Below, in pieces: positions 1 through 31,432 of a stretch of DNA of 31,555 bases. The stretch comes from a virus (Duplodnaviria; Caudoviricetes). Below the pieces are notes generated by a model, which saw only the letters and a list, made by a program, of their open reading frames with translations, made no database searches and was not told the DNA's origin. The translations under genes and the position numbers were made by a program. Location: positions 1-31,555 of the IMG/VR virus record IMGVR_UViG_3300005805_000295, one strand, 5' to 3'. How positions within the stretch are numbered: position 1 is the first letter of the stretch; every line of letters begins with the position of its first letter.

Positions 1-96
1 ATGTAGAACCGTATGTAGAACCGTATGTAGAACCGTATGTAGAACCGTATGTAGAACCGTATGTAGAACCGTATGTAGAACCGTATGTAGAACCGT
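1..96 (+). repeat. 12-bp tandem repeat ATGTAGAACCGT x8 (encodes VEPY), truncated by the window edge
   Basis: Eight exact copies read directly, in frame with the first CDS. Confidence 0.95.
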
Positions 97-3000
97 ATGC
101 CCCAACTGTAACTACCAATACACCAACTGTAACTACCAATACACCAACTGTAACTACCAATACACCAACTGTAACTACCAATACACCTACTTCAACAGCA
201 AATCAAGGTGCAATATCAGCGGCGCTAGAAACAATTGGTAATAACACAAATACCTCCACAAGCGGGAGCGCAGTAATGTCAACAAAAACCGATTTTCCAG
301 TGACTGTAAAAGGTATTACCTATAACTGGGATACAAAAGGAGATGCAGGCGATAAAGCTGACGCATATAACAATATGCTTAGGAGCGGCGCCACTCCTGC
401 TCAAATTAAAACTGCACTAGAAAACGCCTATAACTCAGTATTTAAACCTACTACGCCGGTGTCTATACCTGACTCGGATTGGAACGCTCTTACTTCTCTT
501 GCTGCTAGTAAAGCAACGGATAATATTGTAAACAACGCTACTGGTGCAAATACCGGTGCAAATACCGGTGCAAATACCGGTGCAAATACCGGTGCAAATA
601 CCGGTGCAAATACCGGTGCAAATGCTGGTGCAAATGCTGGTGCAAATGCTGGTGCAAATGCTGGTGCAAATGCTGGTGCAAATGCTGGTGCAACTGCCGG
701 AACAACTACTGGTACAACTACTACGACCACAAACAAAGGGCTTACTTCACTAGTACCGTTTGGAAACCCAGCTTACACATGGAATACTGAAGGAACGTTA
801 GGAGAAAAACAAGCACTCGTCCAAAAGATGAAGGACGACGGTTTTACTGTGTCTCAAATCCGAAACGAAATTAGCAGGCTAGAACCAGACAGATCTGCCT
901 TAACTGAATCTAACTTTAAATTACTTGGGTTGGAAACGGTACTACCCAAACCTGCTGATACGGCCACAACAACCACTGCAACCGCCGCAGACATTCCAAA
1001 CTCAAGCAAAATCTATAACATCGGTGGATTGCAGTGGAACAGTGGTGCGAGCTTAGACACTAAAAAAGGTTATGTCCAAGACTTGTTAAGGACGTACACA
1101 CCGGATCAAGTTAAGTCAATCATCAGGTATAACGACCCAGCAAATGCCACTGATGAAAACTTTGCACTTCTAGGTTTACCTGCGGGCGCTTCTAAAGCTG
1201 CCACACCAACTGGGTTTAGCGCACTGTATAAAGCTCCTACTGAACTAGCACCGTCGCGTGGACTAGGTGCGCTTGTTTCTCAATATGTAGGGCAACCCAA
1301 TTTAAGAACGATGACTCGCTCTATTGGGCCTGAAGGTATGGGTACGCTAACTGAACAGCCTTCAGCAGCTCTTTCTTATGCAACGCGTACTGGCGGTATT
1401 GGAGAGACTCAGTACTTTCAAAACATACGTGATTTCTTTGCAGATCCTAAAGTTACTCCGCAAGATGCCGCTTATCAAATGTCTCGATACAACATCCCTG
1501 AGACAGACATACAGGCTGCTATCGGTTTGACACCTACACAGTTCTTTGCTCAAAAACAATTAGCTGCGGATAGACAAGCTGCTTTGGACGCTGCAAAGCA
1601 AACCAAAGTTGAAAAAATTGAAGCTTTACCCCCTCCTTCACTAACTTATGGTGGAGCACCTATTTCTTTAGGTACAAATACGGGAGGCGCAGGTAATACT
1701 GTCGGTGGGACAGGTAATACTGTCGGTGGGGCAGGTGCTACGGTTGGTGGAGAAGGATCTTCGTTTAGTGGTAGTGCAGGCGGTATAGGTGTTGGTGGTG
1801 GCGTTGGTGGCGTTGGTGATGTAAGTGACGTGGATAGTGGCGCTAGCGACAACGACTCTATAGTTAGTACGATTTTAAAATCAATAGTCGGACCCCCCCA
1901 AGAACCTGCGCCTATTAGACCAGCGGGTACTCCAGACACACCTCCACCAGCGCCCCCTACCGAAGATAATAGAGCAGGAGGACCGATAGCTCTTGCCGAA
2001 GGTGGTAAAGCAAAAATGGCTGGGGAACAAAAGTTTTCGTTTGAAGACTTTGGACTTACTCCCGCTACGGTAGAACTAGCTCGTAAGCAGGGTGTTTTTG
2101 ATGTGCCGCGTAATGTTTTATTTGGCCCTGAGCTTAAAGGCTTAGAAGCTGCTGCTTTGGCAAACATGAGTCCTGAAGAACAAGAAGCGGCGTTACGTCA
2201 TTTGATGCTTAGACAAGGATTAACAGGGGCTGAATACTTTCCAGCAACCATGTTTAAATCAGCAACTCCGGCAAGAATGTTTGATGAACGCGGTAATAGA
2301 ATTCGCCCTCTATACCAATACGCCGAAGGCGGTGATGTCGGTCGAGGGCTGGGCAGTATCGCTATGAAAGGCTATGCTCAAGAGATGGCACAGAAAGGTC
2401 GGTTTGGCGACACGATGCTAGCCCACATTAGCCCCGAAGAAGCTCAGATGCTACAAGCCGCAGGTGGTGCGGGTACTATAAACCCACAGACTGGCTTGCC
2501 TGAGTACTTCAGTTGGAGGAAAGTTTTAAAAACTGTGGGTAAGGTTGCACCTTTTGTTGTGCCGTTCATCCCTGGGTTAGGTCTTGCTACTAAAGCACTA
2601 ATTTCTGGTGTTGCTGGTGGGCTTGGTGGACAGAAAGGCTTTGACTTTAAACGTGGTCTAATGTCAGGCTTGATGTCTTATGGCATTGGCAGTGCCGCAC
2701 AAAACCTCGGACTTACAAGCGGAGCCGCACCTACAGGTGCAGAGGCAGCTAGCGCGGGGGCTATAAATCCTGCTAGTTCGTTACAAGCGGGAATGGATTT
2801 TCCAACTACCGGGGCGCCTACTATTTCTGCTGGGGTTGACTTACAACCTTACACGCCCCCAACTGATGTTGGGTCTATGGATTTTTCTTCCCCTCCTCCA
2901 TCTACGTCTTTACCCACTACTCAACCTTCTGCGCTAGACACCATTAAAGACAAAGCAGTTGCTGGATTTGAAAAATTTCAATCAGTGGCAGATCAACCCA

Positions 3001-6601: not shown

Positions 6602-9600
6602 ATGCGTATATATGAAATTCAAGCGCCTAACGGACGTATTTATGAAGTTCAAGGCCCTGACGGTATATCGCAAGAACAATTGTTTAGCTTTGTTCAGTCA
6701 CAGATATATAGCGAAGACTTAGAAAGGCTTAAAAAAGAAAGGGAAAAATCTCGCCAAGAAAGTTTTAAACCTGTTGATGTGCAGCCTATAGAAAAACAAT
6801 CTGTTCTACGTCAAGTAGCAGACGTACCTATTGGTATAGCACGCGGTGCCGCGCAGGGTATCCGCATGATTGCGGATGCTTTTGGGCCTGATAATGTTGT
6901 ATCGCAAGCCTACCGTGGCATGGAGGATATGCTCGGTGAGTTGTACTCGGCACAGGCTAAGAATGACCAGAAGAAGATAGCCCAGATCATGAAAGATGCC
7001 GAGGATAAAGGCATCGGTGATCAGCTTGTTGCAGCGGTCCAAGCTTTTGCAACGGCTCCTGTTGATATGCTTTCTCAAGCTCTTGGCACTGCCGCACCGA
7101 TTGTTGTCGGTGGTCTTCTTGGTTCAGTTGCCAGATTAGGAGCAGCAGGTGTCGGTGCAGTACAGACTGGACTCGGCGGGGCAATGGGTGCTGGTACTGT
7201 CAAAGGCACGATTTACGAAGCTGTTAAAAGTGCGCTCACAGATTCTGGGGAAGATCCCAAAGTTGCCGAGCGTAAAGCTCGTGAAGCTCAGTCCTACACA
7301 GGAGAAAACTGGGGCCAAGTTTTAGCGGGTACGGTGCTTGGTGGTATAGCCGGTAAGATCGGTGTTGAAGATCTTCTCCTAAAACGCTTTACTCAGAAGG
7401 CAGCTCAAGAAGGAGTTGAGGCTGCGGCACCTGGGTTATTACGTCGTTCGGCTACCGCAGGGGCTACTGAAGCTGTGCCTGAAATGGCGCAGGCTGGTCA
7501 AGAACAATTAGCTGAGAATGTTGCACTGCAACGCGCAGGCTTTGACGTTCCTACGTTTAGAGGGGTTGCAGGCCAAGCAGCTCTTGAAGGTTTGGCAGGT
7601 GCTGGACTTGGTGCAGGGCTGGGTGCATTGCCTGGGGCTACGCCACGTGACCAACAAGCTGAAGAATTTCGTCGCACGTTAAAAGACCAAGAACAAGAAA
7701 CAACGACTGAAGAAAGCGAAGCTGAGAAAAAAGCTAAGAAGCTAAAGCTTGAGGATCTTGACCCTACACAGGTTCAAACAACGCTAAAAGATTTAGAGAG
7801 ATTTACGATTGACCCTGAAGCCCTAAAAGAAAGGGGGGTCAAGAATGAGATTAAAAATAGTCTTCGTCTTTTAGGATTACCTGAAACGCAGGTTAAAGGT
7901 TTTTTACGCGCCAAAAATAACCAAGAATTAGTCAACGCACTGACTAAATTTTTGACGCCTAAACCAGCTACAGAGGAGAAACAAGGTGAGCAACTTGACC
8001 AAGTTGACCAACAGCCAAGTGGAACAGGCACTGATCTATCTGTCAGACCCGGAGGTGAAACCACTACCGGAAGAGCTGCACCACCTTCTACCGACGGAAT
8101 GGGGAGTGCTACAGATGCTTCTCAGCAGGTTGGAGTGGGAGCGCAACAACCTGACATTGCATTAGCCCAACAACAAGCCCCTGCAACTCAACAAGGAACC
8201 CTCAGTGTCGTTACGTCCCCTGAAGCCCAGCAAAAAGAAGAAGCAAGAGAAGAAGCGCCTGCTCAAGGAGCAGCAGTGGCAGGTGCCGCTGCAACCACAA
8301 CCGAACCCGTTGTTGAAACTAAACCAAAAGACTTAAGCGATAAAAGAGCTGCGGCTAAAGCTGCGCTTGAAGCTAGAAAAAAAGCTGCAAAAAATAAAGG
8401 TGCTGTTTCAATTGGGGCTAATGAAGAAGCTCGCTTAAAAGAAATTGAAGAGACCCTGTCTGAAGAAGAGCTAGATTTTGTTAATTTAGTAAGAGATGAA
8501 TTAAGGCAAAACAAACCAATAGACCCAGAAGATTTTAATTTTGCGTCAGAAATACTAAGACCGTTTGACCAGACAAGATACGCTCAGCAACAAGATCGCA
8601 TAGCAGCCCTTTATGAAGACGCTGCCGCAAGAGGATCTAAGAGTTTAAAAACTCGTGGGTTGCCTAAACTGTTCCGCGATTTAACGACTGAAGAAATAAA
8701 AGCTGGCGAAGAAAAAGGTGGCAAATTAACGGCTGATGAACGTGAAGTTTTTGTGGATGCCTTGGGTAAAGATCTGACCCCAGCAGGCGCTACCAAAGCC
8801 TTAGCTAAGTTATCTGATTACCGCGACAAGAAAAAATCTTTTACTGATGAAGCAGGGGCGCGAGCAGATATAGTAGCTAATTCAATAGCAGCTTACGAAA
8901 TAAATCGTAGGATTGAATCAAAACTACGTAAATTAAATTTACCTTCGTTTGTTGAACTCACTGAAGATGAACAACAAGCCTATCTTGGCGAAGCCCCTCT
9001 TAAAGGTAAAGTAACGGGCGAGCAAGTAATAAAAGGTTTTGATGCGATACAAAGCTACAATGAATCTTTAGGTACTGAAGAAGTAACTAAAGAAGAATTA
9101 GATGAAGGTAAAGCAGAAACTGCATACGGTAAAGCTCAACGTGAGATCCAAGCAGAAAAACTTGGTATGGCTGGTACTGAATTACCTACTGATATTTCAG
9201 AAGCAGCTAAACAGGGTAATTTAAAAACAGTAATTGATTACTTAGCTAATTTAGCTAAAGGTTATCAGAAAAAGCAACCGTATACAGGCACTTCGTTTTT
9301 ACAAGCTGTTACTGGGGGTACTCGGTTATCCGGCGCTATTAATAGAGGTATTGCTTCACTTATACGTGACTTAGGTGGTATCGACACAAAACTTAGATAT
9401 ATACCCACACTATCTAAAGACCCAGCTACTCGCGCAGAGGCAGCGCGTCTTTTGAGATCTGAAGGCAAAGCCAGCACATTTATTGCGGAATACGACCCAC
9501 GCACAGATACTCTTACTATTACTGATAGGGCATTAAATGAAACCGCCCTGATGCATGAACTTGTTCATGCTGTCACCGTTAAGATGATGTATAAATATCT

Positions 9601-12600
9601 TACGGGTAATAGAGCGGGCATGTCAGATACTCAAAAACAAGCTGCTCAAGACATAATTAAAATATACAACGCGGCGAAAAGAAACCCTGGTATAAAAGGT
9701 AGTTTTCCAAACGCGTTTGAAAACGTGTATGAGTTTATATCTTACGGATTGTCTGATCCTAATATGCAGACCGCCTTACGTAAGATGCCTTCGCCCATGC
9801 CTACAGCAAAATTACCAAGTACATGGAGTACTTTGGTTGATAGGATAGCGGACTTGTTGGGTATAAAAGGGCTTTTAAAAACCCTACGTATAACGCCAAA
9901 AGAATTTGTACCAACTAGAAAACGTGAGTTGTATGACAGCATTCAAGCTTTAAGAGATACTGTTGAAGAAAGAGTTGAACCTTCAATAGAAAACGTAGAG
10001 GCACTTGAAGAGTTAGAAGCTATTGCTGAAGAAGAGTACCAAATACCAGACATAGAAGTTCAACAAATTGAATATGGTAAAAGTGGGCGTAAGAGAGGAG
10101 AAAAACGTCCTAGTGAAAAACCACAAAAAATATCTAAACAAGAATATGAATCAAGAATAAATCGTCTTGTAGATGCTGCCATTATTGCTGGTAGAGGTGA
10201 TACTTCTGCCACGCAGACTGACGTAGCCAACATAGAACTAAACGAACAAAATGCTTTGTTTGACCTTATGGCAAACTTTGAACAAATTCTTAGTGTGCCG
10301 GAAGCCATACCAGAATTTGATAAGTCTTTGCAAATAACCGATGCTGAGGCTGATAAAACAATTAAAGAAACAGGCGACCGTTTTGTATCAAAGATGGAAG
10401 CTGAAAAGCCAACACTTGCCACAAAAACTCGTGCGCTTAAAAATGCCTTTAATAAAGACGGTCGTACAAGAATTATTGAACAAGCACAGAACTATAGGTA
10501 TAGAGTTGATCGTATAAATAATATTTTACGTAGAGTTGGTAAATTAATATCGTTTGGCAAAGACCAAAACAATTTAGGTACAGCTTTAGCTACGTCAGCA
10601 GGCCGCGCAGAAAACGCATACCAGAAATATTTTTACACAGACATCAGTAAGGCCAACGACATGTTGGCCGATTTAGCTAAGTCTATGGGCATCACAGTAC
10701 AAGATGCTTTAGCTCGCTTACACATGTATGCGATTCACTTGCATGACCCAGAGCGTAGAAAAATTAAGTATCTGCGGGAAGTGCCTTTAGCTGATAACCA
10801 AGCAGTTAGAGACCGTGACAGCATCATGAAAGACGTAATCAAAATAGACCGAAATAAGTTAGGTGATGCTGCTGCTAAACAAGAAGCTCAAAAACTACTT
10901 GTCAAATTAGAAGCTCTTGTTGCTGCCAAAGGAGTCAAGACTTCTCCACTGTTTGACATGAATAACGAAGCCTACAACACGCTAGGCCCATACAGCCTAG
11001 ATCAAATAGAAGCATTTGGCCGCGCATTTACAGGTGGAAATATAGCTAAGGCTAGTAAACTAATAGACACACTTAAAAAGATTGAACAGACAACCATTGA
11101 TCTTAATAAGAAGTCAAATTACTTTTCACCGCCAGTGCAAAACTTAGTTGATTTCTATGATTTTAAATTTTACTTTCCATTCAAAGGTAGACCTGATACT
11201 GGACCAGCCGACTACCAATTAGATTACTTTGGGCAGAATGTCGGTGGCGATTTGCAAGACAAACAAGAAGCTTTTGATGGCCGTATTAGTGATGCGGATA
11301 ATCCAATCCTTAACATCCTAAACGAGGCTAGTAAATCTGCTATGCGACTTGGTAGGCATGAAGCTGGGGTCACGCTTTCTATTAAGAATCTTATAGACTC
11401 AAAGATAATTAGTGGTAAGTCGGTTAAGACTGTTACGTTTGAACAAAGGTTTGATAACAAACTTAATGAAGAACTTAAACGCGGTGTAAAAAACATATTT
11501 CATTACTTGCCAGACGGTAAGATTCAGATTTATGAAATAAATGATAAGCAATTACTTGAGGCTATCAAGCGACCCCTACGTGATGACAATTGGTTTGTTG
11601 ATAGCCTAGGCAAGGCAACTAGCATGTTTGGGCAAATGCATACCCGCTTTAACCCAGCGTTTGCTCCAATGGACTTTCTGCGTAACTTATTCACCTATGC
11701 AGGGGTGCTTGGTGCTGAGACTTCGGGTAAGCGTGGGTTTCAGGTAATGACTGAAATGGCTAGTATCTTAGCCAAGAACGGTTTTACTAAAACTGCCAAA
11801 TACTCGCTTGCATTTAGTCGTGGTAATGAAGCTGAGATGGCTCGTCTTGCCAAGACCGACCCTTTCTATAAAGACCTTAGAGAGTATTACGAACTAGGCG
11901 GTCGAGTGGCATACCTGCAAGGCATAACCATCAAAGATAATCTTACTGATGCAGTCAACGCGGCAGACCAAAATGGTGTCATCAAGTCTTTGAGCGGGGC
12001 AAATAAATTCTTTGATGCTTGGCTCGACATGTTTGAGATGTCTACTCGCATTGCCGCTTACCGTACGATGCGGGATCAGTTTGTAGCTGAAGGTATGCCC
12101 ATTGAACAAGCAAAAATTGAAGCTGTTGCTTACGCTAAAAACCTTGCTAACTTTGAAAAGACAGGCATCAGGGGTAAAGAACTTGGCGCGTTTTTCATGT
12201 TCTTCAGGCCAGCAGCCACAGGCGCAGTACGCGCTTACGAAGCCTTATCTCCAGCCCTTGACTATTTCAAATCCGACGAAGAACTCAAAAAGATAGTTAA
12301 GAAAGAAGCCGAAGACGTTGGTAAGTTAACGGACGCTGACATCAACAAGCTTGTCAAAGAATATCGCAATAGAACTAAGAGTGCTGCGGCTGTGTCAACA
12401 ACTTTATTCGGTGTTGGTGCGGCTACGTTTATGATGGCAGCAGCTATGGCTGGCGACGACGATGAAGGTAGGAACAAAGTTCTTACTGATGACGCGGCAC
12501 GGTGGGTACGTAATGCTCGTTTCAATACAGGCATACAGTCAGGGGGCAAAGATATTGTTTTACAGATACCTTGGGGATTTGGCCCTGGCGCTTTTGCATC

Positions 12601-13426
12601 TGTAGGCGCTCAGATCGCAGCCTTTGTATCGGGTTCACAGTCGTTTGGTCAGTTTATCAATAACGTCTTAGATGCTGGTGCTGAATCCTTCATGCCTATC
12701 CCGATCTCTAAGATCAACAAGTTTGAGCACCCTGTAGAAGCTGCCCTTGATTCCGTACTCCCCAGTGCATTGAAACCTCTCTTTGAGTGGGCGATGAACA
12801 TGGACGGCCTTGGCCGCGAGATCTACAACAACAGGCAGTCACGAAATAACGATGCCTACACAGGCGGGGATAACATCCCAGAGTTTTTCAAAGACGCTGC
12901 TCGTTTGTTGTACAACATGTCAGATGGCAAGATCGATGTATCTCCCAACACGATGTACTTCTTCTCCAATAACTATCTTGATGGTGTGTCACGACTTGCA
13001 TCATGGAGCTACAACACGGCGCATACGATTGCCGGTAACCGAGACTTTGACTTCAAGACAGATACGCTTTTGCTTGACGCCTATCTGAAGGCTCCATCTA
13101 ACTACGATGCACGGCAGTTCAGTGAAGTTGAGAAAGAAATCAAGAACTTGGAGCGGCGCTACCGTGCCTATACTTCAAGCGGCGATGCGGAAAGAATAGC
13201 TGACTATTTCCAAGAACATCCTTATGACAAGTCAGTCATCGACTACTACAATAAGTTCAACGGACAGCTAAACAAATTGCGTGAACTTGCCAACAAGACA
13301 AGGACTAATACAAACCTCACGATCAAAGAGAGGCAGGACCAAGTCCGTGTTTTGATTGATAACCAGAACAAATTAAAATCCGCCTTTGTGCAGTCCGTTG
13401 CCGCGTACGGTATTGAGCCAGACTAA
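6602..13426 (+). CDS. Large polyvalent protein (zincin-like HExxH metallopeptidase motif + LPD38-like C-terminal domain), probably virion-delivered
   Basis: 2274 aa. AEYDPRTDTLTI...ETALMHELVHA carries HExxH. The C-terminal LQIPWGFGPGAF...LKPLFEWAMNMDGLGREIY pattern resembles LPD38. N-terminal YEIQAPNGRIYEVQGPDG is followed by Gly/Ala-rich hydrophobic segments. Confidence 0.8.
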   Translation: MRIYEIQAPNGRIYEVQGPDGISQEQLFSFVQSQIYSEDLERLKKEREKSRQESFKPVDVQPIEKQSVLRQVADVPIGIARGAAQGIRMIADAFGPDNVVSQAYRGMEDMLGELYSAQAKNDQKKIAQIMKDAEDKGIGDQLVAAVQAFATAPVDMLSQALGTAAPIVVGGLLGSVARLGAAGVGAVQTGLGGAMGAGTVKGTIYEAVKSALTDSGEDPKVAERKAREAQSYTGENWGQVLAGTVLGGIAGKIGVEDLLLKRFTQKAAQEGVEAAAPGLLRRSATAGATEAVPEMAQAGQEQLAENVALQRAGFDVPTFRGVAGQAALEGLAGAGLGAGLGALPGATPRDQQAEEFRRTLKDQEQETTTEESEAEKKAKKLKLEDLDPTQVQTTLKDLERFTIDPEALKERGVKNEIKNSLRLLGLPETQVKGFLRAKNNQELVNALTKFLTPKPATEEKQGEQLDQVDQQPSGTGTDLSVRPGGETTTGRAAPPSTDGMGSATDASQQVGVGAQQPDIALAQQQAPATQQGTLSVVTSPEAQQKEEAREEAPAQGAAVAGAAATTTEPVVETKPKDLSDKRAAAKAALEARKKAAKNKGAVSIGANEEARLKEIEETLSEEELDFVNLVRDELRQNKPIDPEDFNFASEILRPFDQTRYAQQQDRIAALYEDAAARGSKSLKTRGLPKLFRDLTTEEIKAGEEKGGKLTADEREVFVDALGKDLTPAGATKALAKLSDYRDKKKSFTDEAGARADIVANSIAAYEINRRIESKLRKLNLPSFVELTEDEQQAYLGEAPLKGKVTGEQVIKGFDAIQSYNESLGTEEVTKEELDEGKAETAYGKAQREIQAEKLGMAGTELPTDISEAAKQGNLKTVIDYLANLAKGYQKKQPYTGTSFLQAVTGGTRLSGAINRGIASLIRDLGGIDTKLRYIPTLSKDPATRAEAARLLRSEGKASTFIAEYDPRTDTLTITDRALNETALMHELVHAVTVKMMYKYLTGNRAGMSDTQKQAAQDIIKIYNAAKRNPGIKGSFPNAFENVYEFISYGLSDPNMQTALRKMPSPMPTAKLPSTWSTLVDRIADLLGIKGLLKTLRITPKEFVPTRKRELYDSIQALRDTVEERVEPSIENVEALEELEAIAEEEYQIPDIEVQQIEYGKSGRKRGEKRPSEKPQKISKQEYESRINRLVDAAIIAGRGDTSATQTDVANIELNEQNALFDLMANFEQILSVPEAIPEFDKSLQITDAEADKTIKETGDRFVSKMEAEKPTLATKTRALKNAFNKDGRTRIIEQAQNYRYRVDRINNILRRVGKLISFGKDQNNLGTALATSAGRAENAYQKYFYTDISKANDMLADLAKSMGITVQDALARLHMYAIHLHDPERRKIKYLREVPLADNQAVRDRDSIMKDVIKIDRNKLGDAAAKQEAQKLLVKLEALVAAKGVKTSPLFDMNNEAYNTLGPYSLDQIEAFGRAFTGGNIAKASKLIDTLKKIEQTTIDLNKKSNYFSPPVQNLVDFYDFKFYFPFKGRPDTGPADYQLDYFGQNVGGDLQDKQEAFDGRISDADNPILNILNEASKSAMRLGRHEAGVTLSIKNLIDSKIISGKSVKTVTFEQRFDNKLNEELKRGVKNIFHYLPDGKIQIYEINDKQLLEAIKRPLRDDNWFVDSLGKATSMFGQMHTRFNPAFAPMDFLRNLFTYAGVLGAETSGKRGFQVMTEMASILAKNGFTKTAKYSLAFSRGNEAEMARLAKTDPFYKDLREYYELGGRVAYLQGITIKDNLTDAVNAADQNGVIKSLSGANKFFDAWLDMFEMSTRIAAYRTMRDQFVAEGMPIEQAKIEAVAYAKNLANFEKTGIRGKELGAFFMFFRPAATGAVRAYEALSPALDYFKSDEELKKIVKKEAEDVGKLTDADINKLVKEYRNRTKSAAAVSTTLFGVGAATFMMAAAMAGDDDEGRNKVLTDDAARWVRNARFNTGIQSGGKDIVLQIPWGFGPGAFASVGAQIAAFVSGSQSFGQFINNVLDAGAESFMPIPISKINKFEHPVEAALDSVLPSALKPLFEWAMNMDGLGREIYNNRQSRNNDAYTGGDNIPEFFKDAARLLYNMSDGKIDVSPNTMYFFSNNYLDGVSRLASWSYNTAHTIAGNRDFDFKTDTLLLDAYLKAPSNYDARQFSEVEKEIKNLERRYRAYTSSGDAERIADYFQEHPYDKSVIDYYNKFNGQLNKLRELANKTRTNTNLTIKERQDQVRVLIDNQNKLKSAFVQSVAAYGIEPD
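7986..8165 (+). CDS. Putative overprinted 59-aa protein nested in the +1 frame of the polyvalent gene
   Basis: GAGGAG (7973-7978) lies 7 nt before GTG. Translation MSNLTKLTNSQVEQALIYLSDPEVKPLPEELHHLLPTEWGVLQMLLSRLEWERNNLTLH*; the host frame here is linker-like. Confidence 0.55.
   Translation: MSNLTKLTNSQVEQALIYLSDPEVKPLPEELHHLLPTEWGVLQMLLSRLEWERNNLTLH
8205..8336 (+). CDS. Putative second overprinted 43-aa basic peptide in the same +1 frame
   Basis: AAGGA (8193-8197) lies 7 nt before GTG. Translation MSLRPLKPSKKKKQEKKRLLKEQQWQVPLQPQPNPLLKLNQKT*. Confidence 0.35.
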   Translation: MSLRPLKPSKKKKQEKKRLLKEQQWQVPLQPQPNPLLKLNQKT

Positions 13427-20038: not shown

Positions 20039-20698
20039 TCAACTCCTATTGAACTCACAGGTTCGCACGGCACAGTAGCCGCACAGTACAGTCGGGTTAG
20101 CTACCCATTCATTGGTTGCGTGAGCCTCTTCCCACCGAGCAAGGTGGGGTGTGAAGTGTGCCCACAGATCATCAGTTTGATCCCTTGTGTAGGCTTCGTC
20201 AACTATGACGTTGTGCATGATGAAGAACAACGCGGCCTTGATATTCAGCACCTCTGGGAAGTGGGCAAACACCATCAAGCCCATGAGCTTTAACTGCATA
20301 GGATCGGGGTAGTTGGCACTACCAGTCTTGTAATCCACGATGTGCGCCGTGTCACCATCGACAATGATCATGTCAGCGATACCACGAACCCACCGGTTCT
20401 TATCCTCATAGTCACATGCCTTGCGGTTAGACAGTAGCCCCATCTTATATTCTGGGTACTTGTTGCCATCGATCTCCAAGATGCCATCGACATAGCCTTG
20501 GTATCGCTTGTAATTGTTTGGAAGAGGTGTACCGTCTACAGCGTACTTTTCCAGAGCTTTGTGTACTGCATTACCGTAGCGTAGAGCTTGCGTGTAGGGC
20601 TGTTGAAAGTTCTTTGCGATTTGGGTTTCGTAGTGTCTACGTGGGCAACCCATGAAATCTTTTAAACGAGAGTAAGACCAATTGATAACTGATTCCAT
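20039..20698 (-). CDS. PD-(D/E)XK (RecB/Cas4-like) exonuclease
   Basis: WSYSRLKDF.GCP, RGIAD, IVDYKTG, QLKLM and C-terminal CGYC...C (4-Cys, Fe-S-type staple). Start re-assigned to MESVINW. Confidence 0.85.
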   Translation of the reverse strand: MESVINWSYSRLKDFMGCPRRHYETQIAKNFQQPYTQALRYGNAVHKALEKYAVDGTPLPNNYKRYQGYVDGILEIDGNKYPEYKMGLLSNRKACDYEDKNRWVRGIADMIIVDGDTAHIVDYKTGSANYPDPMQLKLMGLMVFAHFPEVLNIKAALFFIMHNVIVDEAYTRDQTDDLWAHFTPHLARWEEAHATNEWVANPTVLCGYCAVRTCEFNRS

Positions 20699-20709
20699 AC
20701 TAATTTCTC

Positions 20710-22581
20710 CTATCCACACGCTCCGTAGGATAAACCATATTTAGCCTCACATGTGATAGGCAATCCAGGTGCCCAGCTTGGTCTAGTGTTCATACATTCT
20801 ATGACATACGCAAGGGCTTCATCCAGTTCATCTTCTGGTACAACAACTACAACAGCATCATGTACAGTCAGTGCTGGCCGGTATCTTTCGCTGATCAAAA
20901 GCATCTGCTCTCCGATGACACACCGTGCTAATGCTTGAACAATGTTCTCAACAATTGAGCCACCCCAGACAGACACTGGGCCTCTACGCGATTTATAAAC
21001 AATTCTAGATTTAGCTTCGGATGTATCGCGGGTAATCTCGGGGTAGTGCAGATAAAAGCCGTTGGGTAAAAGTATGCCCTCTGGACAAGCAGTCACGCAG
21101 TCGTGAACTCCTATGTAGTAGTCCTTCTTGTTTTTAGGCCAGCTTATAAGATTCTCAAGAAAGTTATCACAGTCAGCCCACAGGTCAATGATCTTGTCGT
21201 TCTCTGATCGATACAAATCAACGATACGTTTGGCCTCGTCGTCATCAACGACAGCCCCTGGCGGCTGAGTCTTTAAAGTGTGCTGGAGCTTGGCCGCACC
21301 TGTACCGTAACCAAGCCCAAGGATACAAGTCTTTCCAACGAAACGTTCTATAGGATTCTCTTTTGATATAGGGCGCCCATATACTTTAGTAGCAAACTCA
21401 GAGTACACATCCCTGCCTTGAGCGAAGGCATCCACCACATCAGTCTGCCCAGCCAGCCATGCAAGTATGCGAGCTTCGATCTGCGATGAATCTGAGTTGA
21501 TGACGAAGTGGCCGGGGTATGGCACAATGGCATTCTTTAAAGTCTTTTTCTTCTTGTCGCGGCTAGGTAGGTTCTGGAAGTTGACCTTGTCTTGGCCCGC
21601 CCAGCGTCCAGTATGTGCGCCATAATATTTTAGTGGGATCGGCAAGCGGCGTTGATTACGCTTACCAATATCGATGAACCGCTCGATGCGGGACTCTTCG
21701 ATGGTTGACTTCGTGCCTAGACGCACAGCACAGAGTTGCTGAATAAACGGGTCTTCATGTTCAGTGAGCGCAAGGAACCCTTCGTCGTTCTTAGCCAGTG
21801 CGAACGTGGGTTTGCCCGTGGTTGGGCTTTCTTTGACCGGCGGCTCTACGCCAAAAGATTTTAGGAGTTCCGCAAACTGCTTATTTGATGCCAGTTTTTT
21901 CCTTACCTCTTCCTCGGTATTGCACCCCAGCTTTTCTTTTAGCGAACTAAGAAGCTCAGACTTCTCCGCCCGCACATCCTCTAGCCTTTCTAATAAAAGG
22001 TTTTCATCCACGGTAAACACAGGGTGAATGTACATTCTTAAGGTTAAGTTTATGAGGTCTAGCTCAGACTCAGGAAACTTGTGGGCCATGCACTCAAACA
22101 ATTTGTAAGTCAGCTCGACATCGTTGACACAATACTCACCGTAACGTGCAAGCTCCTCGGGCGTGAAGTCAGCTTTGCGCTTGCCCTTGGCATGAATAAC
22201 TTCTTCGCCCTTCACCCCGATTTGATACCGCTCGGCCAAGACTTTGAGACTGCCCCCCGCATCCACACCGTGCAGGGCGCGAGCCATACAAAGTGTGTCA
22301 AGATATTTTTGCGGAGAGATTTGTAATGTCCAGGCGAGCACAGAGCCATCAAACATTGTGTTGTGACATAGGAGCATAGAGTCCCGCCAAGGCAGGGATC
22401 TCAGATGCTTATTTAACATTTCACGCGACCCTGAAATCCAATAAGCAGGGGCATCATTGATCTTGATCCCGATACCGATAATTTCAAATTCAGGATGACG
22501 GACGTACTCCTCCGTTGTCAGTCGGGTCAGTGAAACTTCTTGGCTGTAAAAAGTTTCTAGGTCTAATGTTATTAGGTTCAT
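20710..22581 (-). CDS. polA: Family A DNA polymerase with 3'-5' exonuclease domain
   Basis: Exo motifs DLET, HNTMFD and YCVND; HTGRWAG; motif A DSSQIEARILA; motif B RFVGKTCILGLGYG; motif C TVHDA. Start re-assigned to MNLITLD (ATGA overlap). Confidence 0.93.
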   Translation of the reverse strand: MNLITLDLETFYSQEVSLTRLTTEEYVRHPEFEIIGIGIKINDAPAYWISGSREMLNKHLRSLPWRDSMLLCHNTMFDGSVLAWTLQISPQKYLDTLCMARALHGVDAGGSLKVLAERYQIGVKGEEVIHAKGKRKADFTPEELARYGEYCVNDVELTYKLFECMAHKFPESELDLINLTLRMYIHPVFTVDENLLLERLEDVRAEKSELLSSLKEKLGCNTEEEVRKKLASNKQFAELLKSFGVEPPVKESPTTGKPTFALAKNDEGFLALTEHEDPFIQQLCAVRLGTKSTIEESRIERFIDIGKRNQRRLPIPLKYYGAHTGRWAGQDKVNFQNLPSRDKKKKTLKNAIVPYPGHFVINSDSSQIEARILAWLAGQTDVVDAFAQGRDVYSEFATKVYGRPISKENPIERFVGKTCILGLGYGTGAAKLQHTLKTQPPGAVVDDDEAKRIVDLYRSENDKIIDLWADCDNFLENLISWPKNKKDYYIGVHDCVTACPEGILLPNGFYLHYPEITRDTSEAKSRIVYKSRRGPVSVWGGSIVENIVQALARCVIGEQMLLISERYRPALTVHDAVVVVVPEDELDEALAYVIECMNTRPSWAPGLPITCEAKYGLSYGACG

Positions 22582-23626: not shown

Positions 23627-23811
23627 GCTCTATCTCCTTCTCTATCTCTCCAACTGTCATTGCCTTTGGTACGCTGCTCGTAAACTTCCATTAACAACTC
23701 AGCAGCTTCTTTGATCTTGAATTTCTCTGCTGTGCAGTAGTCAGGCAAACCTTCGGCGTAACCTTCAAGCCATGCGGCTAGCATGGCGAACTTCCACAGT
23801 GGGCTACTCAT
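23623..23811 (-). CDS. Hypothetical protein
   Basis: 62 aa, overlaps both neighbours. Confidence 0.65.
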   Translation of the reverse strand: MSSPLWKFAMLAAWLEGYAEGLPDYCTAEKFKIKEAAELLMEVYEQRTKGNDSWRDREGDRA

Positions 23812-24046
23812 CTGCCTTCCTCATAAACGGTGGGTCTTTTTCGTTGTTTAGTATGCGAGCGATCTCACGGTCTATGTACCAACGTGCCTTTCTCAGATCT
23901 TCAACCTGCTCGCCTTTCAACGAAGCTCTCCAGATGTACTTCGTAGCGTTCCCTAAGTTGAAGTTCATGTGTTCGGTAATCTCTATACACTCTACGCCGC
24001 TTGGGTGTGAGGTGTAGTGTTTAGGATGATTAACTGGATCGTTCAT
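23804..24046 (-). CDS. DUF3310 (T7 gp1.7/SaV-like) protein
   Basis: DPVNHPKHY...ECIEI...FNLGNATKYIWRA..K...EDLRKARWY signature. Confidence 0.88.
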   Translation of the reverse strand: MNDPVNHPKHYTSHPSGVECIEITEHMNFNLGNATKYIWRASLKGEQVEDLRKARWYIDREIARILNNEKDPPFMRKADE

Positions 24047-24433: not shown

Positions 24434-24963
24434 ACCTGCCTCATCAAAATCCACCACACCTTGTGTTACCTAACGCCACCGTGCCTGCCCTAACAAACCG
24501 CACCAAATAAAACCGAACCGAACCTTACCTAGCCTGCCTTATGAGACCTTACATATAACAACTAACCCGACCTCACCTATCCTGCCAAAACGAACCGCGC
24601 CGAACCATACCCAAAGACAACCTACCGAACCGAGCCTGCCCGACCGAACCATATAACGCCGAACGAAATACCACCTAACCTTGCCTGCCTGACCGCATCA
24701 AACCACATCCCTCCTTACCCCATCACACCCCACCTGACCTGCTACACCAAACCCGACCCGACCTCACCTCACCCGACCTCACCACGCCTGCCGAACCATG
24801 CCCCACCTAACCTAAATACACCGCACCAGACCACACCCAACCGCACCTTGCCTGCCTCATCAAACCTTACCACACCCCACCTCACCAAGCCTGACCGACC
24901 GTACCATGCCTGCCCCACCGAACTCCACCGTACCAAGCCTGACCTTACCGTACCCGGCCTGCC
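24434..24963 (-). ncRNA. Array of 10 units GGCA+(GGY-NN)n: candidate guide-RNA array of a non-CRISPR RNA-guided (VIPR-like) system
   Basis: Eleven GGCAGG delimiters (CCTGCC on + at 24435, 24484, 24533, 24581, 24635, 24684, 24738 variant, 24787, 24851, 24909, 24958) with spacings 49,49,48,54,49,54,49,64,58,49 = 4+5n (two units 1 nt short). 73 of 97 pentamers start with GGY. Confidence 0.85.
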
Positions 24964-25427
24964 TAAACCTTCTCTAACTTGTTGCGTAGGACTAAGACTT
25001 GTTCAAGCAATGCTTCCATCTCATCCACCATATCAAGGGCTTGCGCTACGTTCTTTGCTCTTCTTAGCGCACCAACAATGAGTGCAACTTCATTATTAAT
25101 AACTTCTCTTGAAAGATCTTTATTACTACGTACTTTGGTAAGTGTGGTGTAACCTTGCTCGTTACCTTTTTTGCTTGGATCACGTAGATAGAAAGGTGCT
25201 TTAATAACAACTTTCTCTGTGGTTACAATCACGCGCACAGAAGCAATTAGATTACGTGCGGTATCAATCCAGTGCTTATGTGCTGCGCTCTCAAGACTCC
25301 AGTCAAAGTAGCTATGCAGGGGACTTGATGGGTTCTTAGCATCTGCCACTACGATGTCTGGTGTGAGCGACCCCCCGTGGAGGGCCGCAATCTCCTCTAA
25401 TCTTTTAGCTATTGCGGCTCTATCCAT
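24963..25427 (-). CDS. Accessory protein of the Cas7-like/array locus (LTP..VV..A....SPLH.YFDW family)
   Basis: 154 aa; AGGAG RBS; lies between the RAMP-like gene and the array, and the G of its TAG stop is the first base of the first GGCAGG. Confidence 0.8.
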   Translation of the reverse strand: MDRAAIAKRLEEIAALHGGSLTPDIVVADAKNPSSPLHSYFDWSLESAAHKHWIDTARNLIASVRVIVTTEKVVIKAPFYLRDPSKKGNEQGYTTLTKVRSNKDLSREVINNEVALIVGALRRAKNVAQALDMVDEMEALLEQVLVLRNKLEKV

Positions 25428-25437
25428 GTTTATCTCC

Positions 25438-26205
25438 TTAAGCTACTTTCAAACCACGACGTTTGGTCTCTGTGTTGAACCACGATAGCAACTCTTCAGT
25501 GTCGTCGTCATAAGCCTCTGGGTTCTCCAGTGCTTCAAGTTGCGCTGCCTTGCCGCCTGTCTTAATTATTTCTAAGAACTCAGGGTCATCAGCATCGACA
25601 ATCTTCCAACGACCATAGTTACCTGAACCTTTTTCAGGTCTCCAATCACCTACGCCCATCGTAATACCTGCTGTAGCGAAGAGGTTAGAGATAATCGTAT
25701 GGTTCAGAACCGGACGCACATAAGTGATGTCAACCTTACATGCCCACTTCGGTACGATGGCACGGGTGCGTACATCGGGAGTCTTGTTGATGTCTGCTGA
25801 CCGAGTAATACTTGAGAAGATCTTAGGAACACCAAACAACTCAAGACGTTCATTCTCAACCGTTGTCAGGCGACCAATCTGTGACTTCTTAGCTCCAGGC
25901 ATATCCAGTGCGGCATTGCGTAGCGCACCTTTAAATTGCGTAGCTAACACAGACAACTCAGTTGCATGGTTGCCCTGCGGCATACGGTATGGCGATGAGC
26001 GATACTCAGTCAAAGGATCGTGCTTCATTGATCCTGCTTTCTCAGCAGCAGTCTTGCGACCGGAAGGAAGAAGCAGTTGCTGCCATGCCTTCTCAGGCAT
26101 ACGGTTGCAGATCATTGGTGTAGTTCCTAGTACATGGAACGTAACCGTTTGGGTTTCCATCTCAACGATTTGGATCGTATCTTCTGTTACTTTCTTTGTA
26201 GCCAT
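25438..26205 (-). CDS. Stand-alone Cas7/RAMP-like RNA-binding protein (Vipr-like)
   Basis: RAMP-type order of motifs: beta1 VTFHVLGTTPMI, helix VLATQFKGALRNAA (cf. IPGSSLKGALR), thumb region ending RTRAIVPKWACKVDITY, and a C-terminal Gly-rich loop GITMGVGDWRPEKGSGNYGRWKI. Confidence 0.78.
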   Translation of the reverse strand: MATKKVTEDTIQIVEMETQTVTFHVLGTTPMICNRMPEKAWQQLLLPSGRKTAAEKAGSMKHDPLTEYRSSPYRMPQGNHATELSVLATQFKGALRNAALDMPGAKKSQIGRLTTVENERLELFGVPKIFSSITRSADINKTPDVRTRAIVPKWACKVDITYVRPVLNHTIISNLFATAGITMGVGDWRPEKGSGNYGRWKIVDADDPEFLEIIKTGGKAAQLEALENPEAYDDDTEELLSWFNTETKRRGLKVA

Positions 26206-26650: not shown

Positions 26651-26959
26651 CTACTCCATCACGCGAGGGTTTAACATCTCCAGATACTTCTGCCTGTAGT
26701 GTCGGAACTTACCCGCGTCGGCAGGGTCTTTAAGACCTTGGCGCATAGCGTACTTAATCATGTTGCCCTTGAGGAACCCCATGAACTCGTCATAGGTAAG
26801 CAATGTCTCCATCGCTTCCCAAGGTTGTACGCCCATCGTCTTGTAGTGTGAACCACCAACTTGTATATCGTTAGCAGTAAGCGGTCTGTGTGCTGGTGCA
26901 GCATCGACTTTGTTGCGTGACCCAGGGGGACGACCCCTACGCTTCTTTGTAGTAACCAT
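26651..26959 (-). CDS. DUF3310-like protein with N-terminal AT-hook-like motif
   Basis: QVGGSHYK...QPWE...GFLKGNMIKYAMR..K; N-terminal KKRRGRPPGSRNK. Confidence 0.8.
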   Translation of the reverse strand: MVTTKKRRGRPPGSRNKVDAAPAHRPLTANDIQVGGSHYKTMGVQPWEAMETLLTYDEFMGFLKGNMIKYAMRQGLKDPADAGKFRHYRQKYLEMLNPRVME

Positions 26960-28200: not shown

Positions 28201-29454
<1,254 letters not shown>

Positions 29455-29462
29455 ATAACCTC

Positions 29463-30329
29463 CTATATCCAATCGTTAACTGCGAGGATGTTGTCTACCT
29501 TCTCCTTTATCTCCTTGCGTACTGATGCACTCTCCTTTATGTCATCGATGCGTACACCTAAGAGTGCACGTTCCAAGTCTTGCCTTGCCTGCTCTAGCTT
29601 GGCATCTCCTGTTATGTTGAATGCAGTAAGCAGTCCGCATAGCTCGTGAGCATTAGTGAGCATGCTCTCGTGATACCGCTTCTTCTTATCTTCTTGTTCT
29701 TGTGGCGAGTCAGTCATACGTGATGAGATATGAATAAGTGTCTCGTGCAACCTACCCCACGCATCCTTCATCGCATCACCTACCCTGCGGTTAGCCTCGG
29801 CTTCGTAGTTAGTTGCTAGCTCTTTGATAACCTCATTGTGCGTATCGAGGATGAAGTGTCCGCTCTGTGGCACAGGGGTGAAGGCATATCTGAAGCTGAA
29901 CTTGCGAGCAACCTCGCTCACGTCTGGATACTCTGAGCGATTGAAGAAGTTACCCAGCTTGAATGCTGCTACTGATACGAGGTTAGGATAAGCATCGAGG
30001 AATGTCTTGACGAGTGCTGTTGTGTTTGCCTCCATCGTATTAAGTTGCGACTTGTAGTTGAAGAAGTTAGCCATCGGCAAGAGCCTTGGGCCTTTCTCTG
30101 CCCACGGCAGGGTCTGCGCTATGTGCCATACGCGAACCTTCGCAATGTAGTCGTTGATGTTCTTGAGTAGTGCTGTACCTGCCATGAGGTTCTTGTTGAC
30201 GCGAGCCGCATCGCTCTCGGTTGCGTTGTTATCGGTGATTACTTTAGCCGACTGCTGTTTGTCTAGTTTGTATGCAGTCCATGCTGAGATGTTGAGTTCG
30301 ACAAGCACTGCGTTGTTTAAGATAGTCAT
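29463..30329 (-). CDS. DUF3150-like protein of the AAA-vWA module
   Basis: AVLVELNISAWTAYKLD, K.LMA, HIAQTLPW...G.RLLP, F....YP; typical position between AAA and vWA genes. Confidence 0.65.
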   Translation of the reverse strand: MTILNNAVLVELNISAWTAYKLDKQQSAKVITDNNATESDAARVNKNLMAGTALLKNINDYIAKVRVWHIAQTLPWAEKGPRLLPMANFFNYKSQLNTMEANTTALVKTFLDAYPNLVSVAAFKLGNFFNRSEYPDVSEVARKFSFRYAFTPVPQSGHFILDTHNEVIKELATNYEAEANRRVGDAMKDAWGRLHETLIHISSRMTDSPQEQEDKKKRYHESMLTNAHELCGLLTAFNITGDAKLEQARQDLERALLGVRIDDIKESASVRKEIKEKVDNILAVNDWI

Positions 30330-30346
30330 GCTAGCTCCTTTGCTGT

Positions 30347-31432
30347 TTAGAATAAGTCTTGGTTGTTAGCGCACCAGTCGCGGAACCTTGCGTTGCTGAA
30401 TGCGATAGCTTGTTTGATTGGATCTTTAGCGATGCTCAGTACGAGACATGCCATCCAGTCAGGATTCAACCGCTCGGCATAGGTCATGTAAGCATCGATA
30501 TTGTCCTTAGCCAGTGTGTCTATGAAGGCATACACAAGTATCCCCTGCGCCCCTGACTCAGCAGGCACTCGGCATCCCTTGGGGTCAGTCCGTATCGCCT
30601 CGCGTGTTGGCAGTTGATCTGAGAACTGCAAGTAAGTCATGAATGAATCAGCGAATGCAGCGCCTGCTGTACCTGCGAGTGCTACGTGTACTGCGTTCTG
30701 TGTAAGCTTCTTGCGGACGTGGACGATGTTGCTTGACCTTGAGAGTGTGCGAGGCGACACGCACGACTGATTGGGCTTGCGTGGGTTGTATGGATATGGG
30801 TTGCTCTCCTGCCCAGGGTCTCGATACGAAGCTAGACAATCGGGATGGGCATATACCCACGAGCGTATCTCTGGTGCAATGTTGTTAGCACTAGCCCAAG
30901 GCAACCACGTATCGGCAGAGGGCTTGCGTATCTCACACTCGGTTACCCGCTGTAGTGAGTGCGCTTTGAGGTTGTCACCGACTCCATCTGTGGACAGGTT
31001 ACCCGTGAGGAATACGATGCTTCCCTTCTTGAGGAACTTATCTGCCATGCGAGGCTTGTTTTCTTCGAGTAGTGGATGCAGCATGTTACGCACAGGTTCT
31101 GCACCCTTGCTGAACTCATCAAGGCATATGACTACCTTCTTATCAGTATGCAGTTTGAACGTGCCGTTGGGGAAGTATTCGAGGATGCGCTCCTCTCGGT
31201 TTGGAATTGGTGCTGCTGTGTCGCCAAGGTCTAGGCTCGCACAGTCTACGTAAACGAAATCGTACTCGTCTGCGGGTAGCAGGGGATGAGACTCTAAGAG
31301 GTTAAGCACAGACGACTTGCCGATCCCAGGCTCGCCACGTAGTAGGAACCTATTGTCAGGGATGTTAGCGATAAGGTCTGCTGCCTCTTGCAGTGAGATC
31401 TCGCGCTGCTGTTTGACTTGCTGTTCTTGCAT
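30347..31432 (-). CDS. MoxR-like AAA+ ATPase
   Basis: Walker A GEPGIGKS, Walker B ICLDEF, sensor LTGN, SLQR and SPRT. Confidence 0.9.
   Translation of the reverse strand: MQEQQVKQQREISLQEAADLIANIPDNRFLLRGEPGIGKSSVLNLLESHPLLPADEYDFVYVDCASLDLGDTAAPIPNREERILEYFPNGTFKLHTDKKVVICLDEFSKGAEPVRNMLHPLLEENKPRMADKFLKKGSIVFLTGNLSTDGVGDNLKAHSLQRVTECEIRKPSADTWLPWASANNIAPEIRSWVYAHPDCLASYRDPGQESNPYPYNPRKPNQSCVSPRTLSRSSNIVHVRKKLTQNAVHVALAGTAGAAFADSFMTYLQFSDQLPTREAIRTDPKGCRVPAESGAQGILVYAFIDTLAKDNIDAYMTYAERLNPDWMACLVLSIAKDPIKQAIAFSNARFRDWCANNQDLF

Follow-up and report, generated by a model that had tools for sequence, protein, structure and literature searches.

The closest described relatives of the locus analysed here are the VIPR systems, which consist of a vipr gene, a vap gene and GGY/NN RNAs that are read with a one-base skip (10.64898/2026.04.26.720920). 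Filament formation, a triplex R-loop and repression have been reported for the VIPR systems of SUSP1 and P. fulva (10.64898/2026.04.26.720920; 10.64898/2026.04.26.720927; 10.64898/2026.10.15.759431). According to the reported cryo-EM structures of SUSP1 Vipr, residues of the thumb and the G-loop read GGY (10.64898/2026.04.26.720927; 10.64898/2026.10.15.759431), and repression by SUSP1 VIPR is described as stopping a satellite from excising (10.64898/2026.10.15.759431). A figure legend in the first report (fig. S18) describes staggered vrRNA arrays, in which neighbouring guides overlap by one base; the text of that report neither confirms these arrays by sRNA nor assigns them a type or targets, and its figures and tables may already list the clade described below (10.64898/2026.04.26.720920). 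VIPR has been in print for only months, and natural targets are on record chiefly for two type II clades.

Here we analyse a VIPR locus in a phage sequence of 31,555 nucleotides (IMG/VR record IMGVR_UViG_3300005805_000295; hereafter the window). A preliminary description of this DNA had named such a system and suggested that the locus may be a new member of it rather than a new class. The system named there exists, its published architecture of a Cas7-like protein with GGY/NN RNAs fits the locus, staggered arrays included, and the locus is a VIPR member. What is new here is the assignment of targets and a reading of 4-nt repeats; the class itself is published.

Results

Both minus-strand genes of the preliminary description are present, and the array begins on the stop codon of the shorter one as had been noted, its first GGCAGG junction falling at 24963, the G of TAG, and its last starting at 24440 (Table 1). 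In line with the preliminary description, Pfam named no cas gene among the 27 ORFs of the window; Rfam gave no match in it. Likewise, neither cas5, cas6, cas8 or cas10 partners nor a repeat-spacer array, the marks of class 1 CRISPR-Cas, was found within the window; these negatives cover the window, probably some half of the genome, since the relatives measure 62-70 kb (one of them with terminal repeats). The sole Cas-like match in the window is a Cas4-like PD-(D/E)XK exonuclease (20039..20719, minus strand) that adjoins PolA in the phage replication module and is probably an ordinary phage replication gene. The window belongs to a phage that has genes for PolA, an SNF2 helicase and a primase. 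Lakes and other freshwater sites are the source of most sequencing runs that contain this stretch. The host, to which no link was found, may belong to the freshwater Burkholderiales.

Table 1. Features of the VIPR locus and its predicted targets (a slash marks the boundary between units).
Feature	Position	Strand	Description
vipr	25438..26205	-	255 aa; Cas7-like RAMP
vap accessory gene	24963..25427	-	154 aa
GGY-NN array, staggered, ten units joined at GGCA/GG	24434..24963	-	without structured tails
Unit 2	24853..24910	-	58 nt; no target found
Unit 3, 12 NN	24789..24852	-	predicted to target motif B (KACVLAVQYGM) in the PolA of integrase-PolA elements
Unit 6, 9 NN	24637..24685	-	weak candidate against the element L111 integrase (16/18, antisense)
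Unit 8, 9 NN, one 4-nt repeat	24535..24582	-	predicted to target the AAA_24 ATPase (YDRYVIKLH) of a prophage
Integrase-PolA elements, widespread, ~5 kb	L043-L244, L289 (5567-10909)		freshwater Proteobacteria and other phyla

The RAMP fold proposed for Vipr is borne out by its predicted structure (AF2, pLDDT 82), for which the best matches by Foldseek and VIA are Csm3, Cmr4 and Cas7 (Z 8.9). The model comprises an RRM core, a thumb, a G-loop and a conserved C-terminal helical extension of ~50 aa, the last of which SUSP1 Vipr lacks. A PDB search with the single Vipr sequence gave no match and a profile was required; with a family profile of 72 close relatives, the best PDB match was SUSP1 Vipr (36PP, E=0.0018), and the same profile picks out the vipr gene in the SUSP1 genome. 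The two proteins are identical at 34/178 positions (19%). Residues R148, D187, W188 and R189 of the window protein align with the GGY-reading R138, D177, W178 and R179 of SUSP1, and SUSP1 H17 pairs with N34. At the SUSP1 DNA clamp, K33, K82 and K88 have no basic partner and R39 aligns to R50, in a part where this 19%-identity alignment is unreliable. With phmmer we found 1961 relatives of Vipr, and with a profile, at 50% clustering, 3362. Neither Vipr nor Vap is named by Pfam, NCBIfam or PADLOC, PHROGs holds only families of unknown function, and the ESM Atlas returned only unnamed viral clusters.

The vap gene lies beside vipr in 37/39 related viral loci (tblastn). The AF2 model of Vap has a pLDDT of 91, and fold searches with it returned generic helical-hairpin matches only, with no nuclease family or fold among them. 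Residues H38, W43, R58, Y93 and R123 are invariant. Homology with the ORF of 146 aa that follows vipr in SUSP1, and which we take to be Vap1, was not detectable (E=0.086).

The 530-nt array contains 54 GGY pairs at lag 5, compared to 5.0±2.2 (maximum 14) in 2000 dinucleotide shuffles and 13.2±3.4 (maximum 26) in 2000 shuffles that preserved GGY; elsewhere in the window, 500-nt stretches reach 5 at most. The 5-nt GGY-NN period of the preliminary description is therefore present, but it does not run as one continuous repeat. Instead, the array is made of ten units of, in order, 49, 58, 64, 49, 54, 49, 54, 48, 49 and 49 nt, each of which closes with a 4-nt GGCA (AGCA once), so that the register shifts by one base at every GGCA/GG junction. 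A length of 5n-1 nt is seen in 8/10 window units and in 128/199 segments across 16 arrays. Each window unit holds 9-12 NN; the triplet is a canonical GGY in 72/95 window pentamers, and position 3 is a pyrimidine in 93/95. Among 134 unique segments, a few of them trailing non-array ones, the two NN positions have entropies of 1.93 and 1.98 bits vs. 0.9-1.1 for the triplet positions. The units abut without tails, and the array has no ribozyme or other Rfam match. In fold prediction, each of 100 shuffles came out more structured than the array RNA (z=+2.2). The array is covered by contigs from two RNA libraries that belong to a single study. Joints in these contigs leave out stretches of the array, chiefly where one unit meets the next; the contigs are uninformative on transcription, strand and ends.

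Arrays are linked to vipr among its homologues as well. We collected 39 viral loci, several of them near-duplicates, and dropped one without a gene end and two without downstream DNA; a period-5 signal exceeded all 200 shuffles in 35 of the remaining 36. GGCAGG arrays also adjoin the vipr relatives (~29% identity) of Mycobacteriophage Saal and Gordonia phage ODay, cultured phages that offer ready models for staggered arrays (L291 2100-2350 and L292 3120-3290, respectively); the Saal array lies upstream of the gene. At L036 5338-7856 the array is very long, ~2.5 kb in several tracts. The arrays of the window and its 15 close relatives have 8-19 units, shared in a mix-and-match fashion, and unit 8 is common to all 15. 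In five phages, 91-98% identity in Vipr goes with a PolA only 40-51% identical to that of the window, and in two relatives DNA identity begins at the start of vipr. Therefore, the VIPR cassette moves between phages.

Read on our assumption as codon positions 1 and 2, the NN of unit 3 resembled PolA motif B. The search pattern made from this unit comprised 11 of the 12 dinucleotides and allowed Y in place of one T, a change made after the motif had been read. It had no match in IMG/VR, 82 matches in GTDB genomes against ~0.14 by chance (estimated from 596 Gb), and 120 among the matches listed, of about 390, in metagenomes. KACVLAV[QH]YGM is in frame at 82/82 genome loci, and the matched site is in frame at all 202 loci (82 plus the 120 listed), on which unit 3 with a one-base skip mostly scores 21-22/24. 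At the relaxed base, unit 3 has T and the loci listed have C (202/202); the last dinucleotide is usually mismatched too. A G-U wobble could be the cause of the T/C mismatch.

The 202 loci were then compared with 75 regular guides from the window and its relatives. With a skip of one base, 7/75 matched at 90% or better; with skips of 0, 2 or 3 none did, and four shuffles gave 0-1. Two of these seven guides overlap the site by which the loci had been selected, and one (15/16) is scattered. A relative's guide matches motif C of PolA with 24/24 at best and at least 21/24 at 144/146 loci, and the positions it reads are 97% conserved compared to 63% for those it skips. Two versions of one relative guide match motif A (18/18 and 17/18), and another relative's guide matches the integrase (20/20, antisense, one locus). 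The motif C, motif A and integrase guides played no part in locus selection. The idea that recognition is encoded in the NN bases thus gains skip-1 matches, in wobble phase and in mobile-element genes, for 2/10 window units. Unit 3 and a unit of one relative (L004 6225-6273) read a single PolA motif at offset, partly overlapping positions and have a degenerate ATT triplet in common; the offset looks like guides sliding along a target by gain and loss of repeats.

The PolA gene lies in an element of ~5 kb that holds an integrase, often AlpA, an unnamed gene, PolA, an HTH gene and sometimes HGGxSTG. Of 41 loci with full flanks, 35 yielded the integrase, 39 the unnamed gene and 40 the HTH gene; AlpA was recognized by Pfam in 4/4 candidate ORFs and by tblastn at 3/41 loci. 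Carriers include many freshwater Burkholderiales and members of other phyla, and the element is in 5/127 genomes of the Limnohabitans genus set. The surroundings of element L289 contain no att repeat of at least 12 nt and no tRNA, no capsid gene was seen in the elements, the target loci hold no solo vrRNA arrays, and no packaging gene or att repeat connects the elements with the window phage. Our literature searches met no family name or description for them. The nearest described kind are the PICMI/PICI-like satellites (PMC10803314, PMC9618062), as reported there likewise ~5 kb with an integrase, AlpA and a replication gene. PICMIs are defined by int, alpA, a primase and mobilisation by a helper (PMC10803314), whereas the target element has a family A polymerase, an HTH gene and HGGxSTG instead of the primase.

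Unit 8 contains one internal 4-nt repeat, kept in every relative at two differing positions. We read this repeat as two scaffold bases plus NN, with the step still 3 nt, and the match of unit 8 depends on that reading. Exact matches occurred in 2/401 Burkholderiales genomes and in none of the control, both in an AAA_24 ATPase gene and in wobble phase. The gene adjoins SSB, helicase and primase, followed in one genome by terminase, portal and capsid. At this site unit 8 of the relatives scores 18/18, including a ninth dinucleotide left out of the search, and unit 8 of the window 17/18. When 31 irregular units were scored under this model, 7 reached at least 94%, against 0-2 under four other models and 0 when shuffled; the test is partly circular, since versions of unit 8 make up 6 of the 7 and the same model had led to the target of that unit. 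Apart from unit 8, two irregular guides match element L111, one in the integrase (19/20) and one in PolA (21/24). These matches are suggestive of internal 4-nt repeats that still step three bases. A 4-nt-repeat rule did not turn up when two VIPR papers were searched by term (10.64898/2026.10.15.759431; 10.64898/2026.04.26.720927), and the first report speaks only of "internal degeneracy" (10.64898/2026.04.26.720920).

A convincing target is missing for 8/10 window units, units 1 and 4 having been searched locally only. The unit 6 match is to a single locus, its score lies within the shuffle range, and the L111 integrase has no relatives in IMG/VR. In the RNA-library contigs an extra base at 24894 makes unit 2 a regular 59-nt unit; in this form it matched 0/127 Limnohabitans genomes and had 33 viral core matches, none above 18/22. 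Unit 5, considered as a Walker A guide, had no viral match and matched 53/127 Limnohabitans genomes (at most 2 mismatches), mostly at one ychF site out of wobble phase; in 401 genomes it gave 11 scattered matches vs. 3 for the control, and was rejected. Unit 7 had no viral match and 13 in unrelated host genes. Unit 9, a weak lead, had 12 IMG/VR matches, in terminase, scaffold and one large ORF, of which the terminase matches were 18/18 in 5; no second guide converges on them and their number is near the calibrated chance rate. Unit 10 had 3 viral matches, 2 of them distinct, also near chance. No self-target was found: the best match of a window unit within the window was 16/24, unit 3 scored 15/24 against the PolA motif of the phage itself, and in three near-complete relatives 2/75 guides reached at least 85% compared to 0-3 when shuffled.

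Discussion

The predicted RAMP fold, the homology with SUSP1 Vipr, the linkage of arrays and the one-base-skip targeting are all positive, which makes the locus a member of the published class. It has a stand-alone RAMP, the GGY-reading residues, a minimal vipr-vap locus in a phage and guides of 9-12 repeats, within the 9-16 of VIPR. Its nearest counterparts are the staggered-array VIPR loci, as far as their report describes them (10.64898/2026.04.26.720920), with which it shares vipr, vap and a GGY/NN array in a phage, the one-base overlap and the skip at wobble positions. Like type II VIPR of coliphage SUSP1, it keeps the GGY-reading residues, has no self-targets and directs guides to catalytic motifs of integrated elements. 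It differs in the size of Vipr (255 aa vs. ~200 aa), in its Vap, in having about a quarter of its triplets degenerate, and in the internal 4-nt repeats; neither a structured 3' tail nor Vap1, by which type II is recognized, was found at the window locus. The SUSP1 guides are reported to end in a 40-nt pseudoknot tail (10.64898/2026.04.26.720927), whereas the window units are tail-less, and the reported SUSP1 target is an F5 satellite recombinase (10.64898/2026.10.15.759431), compared to PolA, integrase and ATPase for the window clade. The backbone RAMPs of class 1 CRISPR systems (Csm3, Cmr4, type VII Cas7) have the same predicted fold (Z 8-9), but the window locus has no other cas genes or repeat-spacer array, and its code is gapped.

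We therefore regard the locus as a phage VIPR with a staggered guide array that likely silences replication genes of resident integrated elements and prophages, a reading to which we give a probability of about 80%. The array would be co-transcribed with vipr and vap, and the one-base shift at GGCA/GG would separate the guides. By analogy with the described systems, Vipr would polymerise on the array RNA with one subunit per GGY-NN repeat, clamping GGY so that NN could pair with double-stranded DNA while every third base is skipped, and the bound complex would block transcription of the replication genes. Since two guides find their matches in conserved replication genes, carried by integrated elements and by prophages, the phage likely silences rivals already in its host; and because the guides match catalytic or conserved motifs in genes for replication and integration, the targets could not escape by synonymous change. 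The integrase-PolA elements may be satellites that the phage needs silenced. The preliminary description had proposed recognition of foreign nucleic acid; the targets found are integrated elements and prophages in the chromosome, not free phages.

The same recognition could have another output, with Vap as an enzyme that processes the array or damages the target, or with a filament that blocks replication forks. The invariant residues of Vap, its lack of homology to SUSP1 Vap1, the position of the target sites deep inside replication genes on either strand, and an array without tails or ribozymes, in which something must therefore separate the guides, would all suit such an output. Nevertheless, we think it improbable, as Vap matches no nuclease family or fold, and the published accounts place nucleases in VIPR types III and V only and report repression from sites in coding sequence (10.64898/2026.04.26.720920; 10.64898/2026.10.15.759431). 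Silencing of resident elements also seems to us preferable to a range made up mainly of free competing phages, of which integrated elements would merely be the part visible in databases. That unit 8 falls on a prophage gene, that unit 9 fits terminases and that eight units have no target would be expected if free phages were the main targets; but unit 3, with no match in IMG/VR and 82 in genomes, argues the opposite, and the viral matches of units 9 and 10 are near the chance rate, with no converging second guide. We consider free phages as the main targets somewhat less probable again than a different output.

Finally, the array might be a G/T-rich repeat without guide function, matched by chance. 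Conserved coding motifs do inflate pattern matches, as ychF did with unit 5, but the 82 genome matches of unit 3 far exceed expectation and all lie in one gene and one frame, and independent guides converge on the PolA gene with a skip of one only, which leaves chance a very small share of the probability.

The locus extends support for the one-base-skip code to a clade that is distant (19% identity) and has staggered arrays of tail-less guides, and its concrete guide-target pairs make both the separation of staggered guides and the rigidity of the 5-nt repeat testable. Guides of ~50 nt without a tail would make a more compact programmable tool, and the guides flag a family of integrase-PolA elements. 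More tentatively, and a little short of what we would call probable, this clade may use a looser code than the published one, in which 4-nt repeats with only two scaffold bases have their NN read and keep the 3-base step and tail-less guides are split only by GGCA/GG and swapped as cassettes, against undescribed but widespread ~5-kb PolA satellites of freshwater Proteobacteria that have these phages as helpers.

Some other features of the window may be recorded. DUF3310 genes flank the VIPR cassette, one on each side (23804..24046 and 26651..26959, minus strand). Upstream of the cassette, genes for an AAA ATPase, a DUF3150-like protein and a DUF2201 metallopeptidase-vWA protein stand in a row (28201..31432, minus strand), with a poly-Q run inside the vWA gene (28945..28977). 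A 2274-aa protein with an LPD38 domain, a large polyvalent protein, is encoded at 6602..13426 on the plus strand, and the first large ORF, which may encode a tail fibre, contains tandem repeats of 12 nt and 21 nt (1..191, 539..722).
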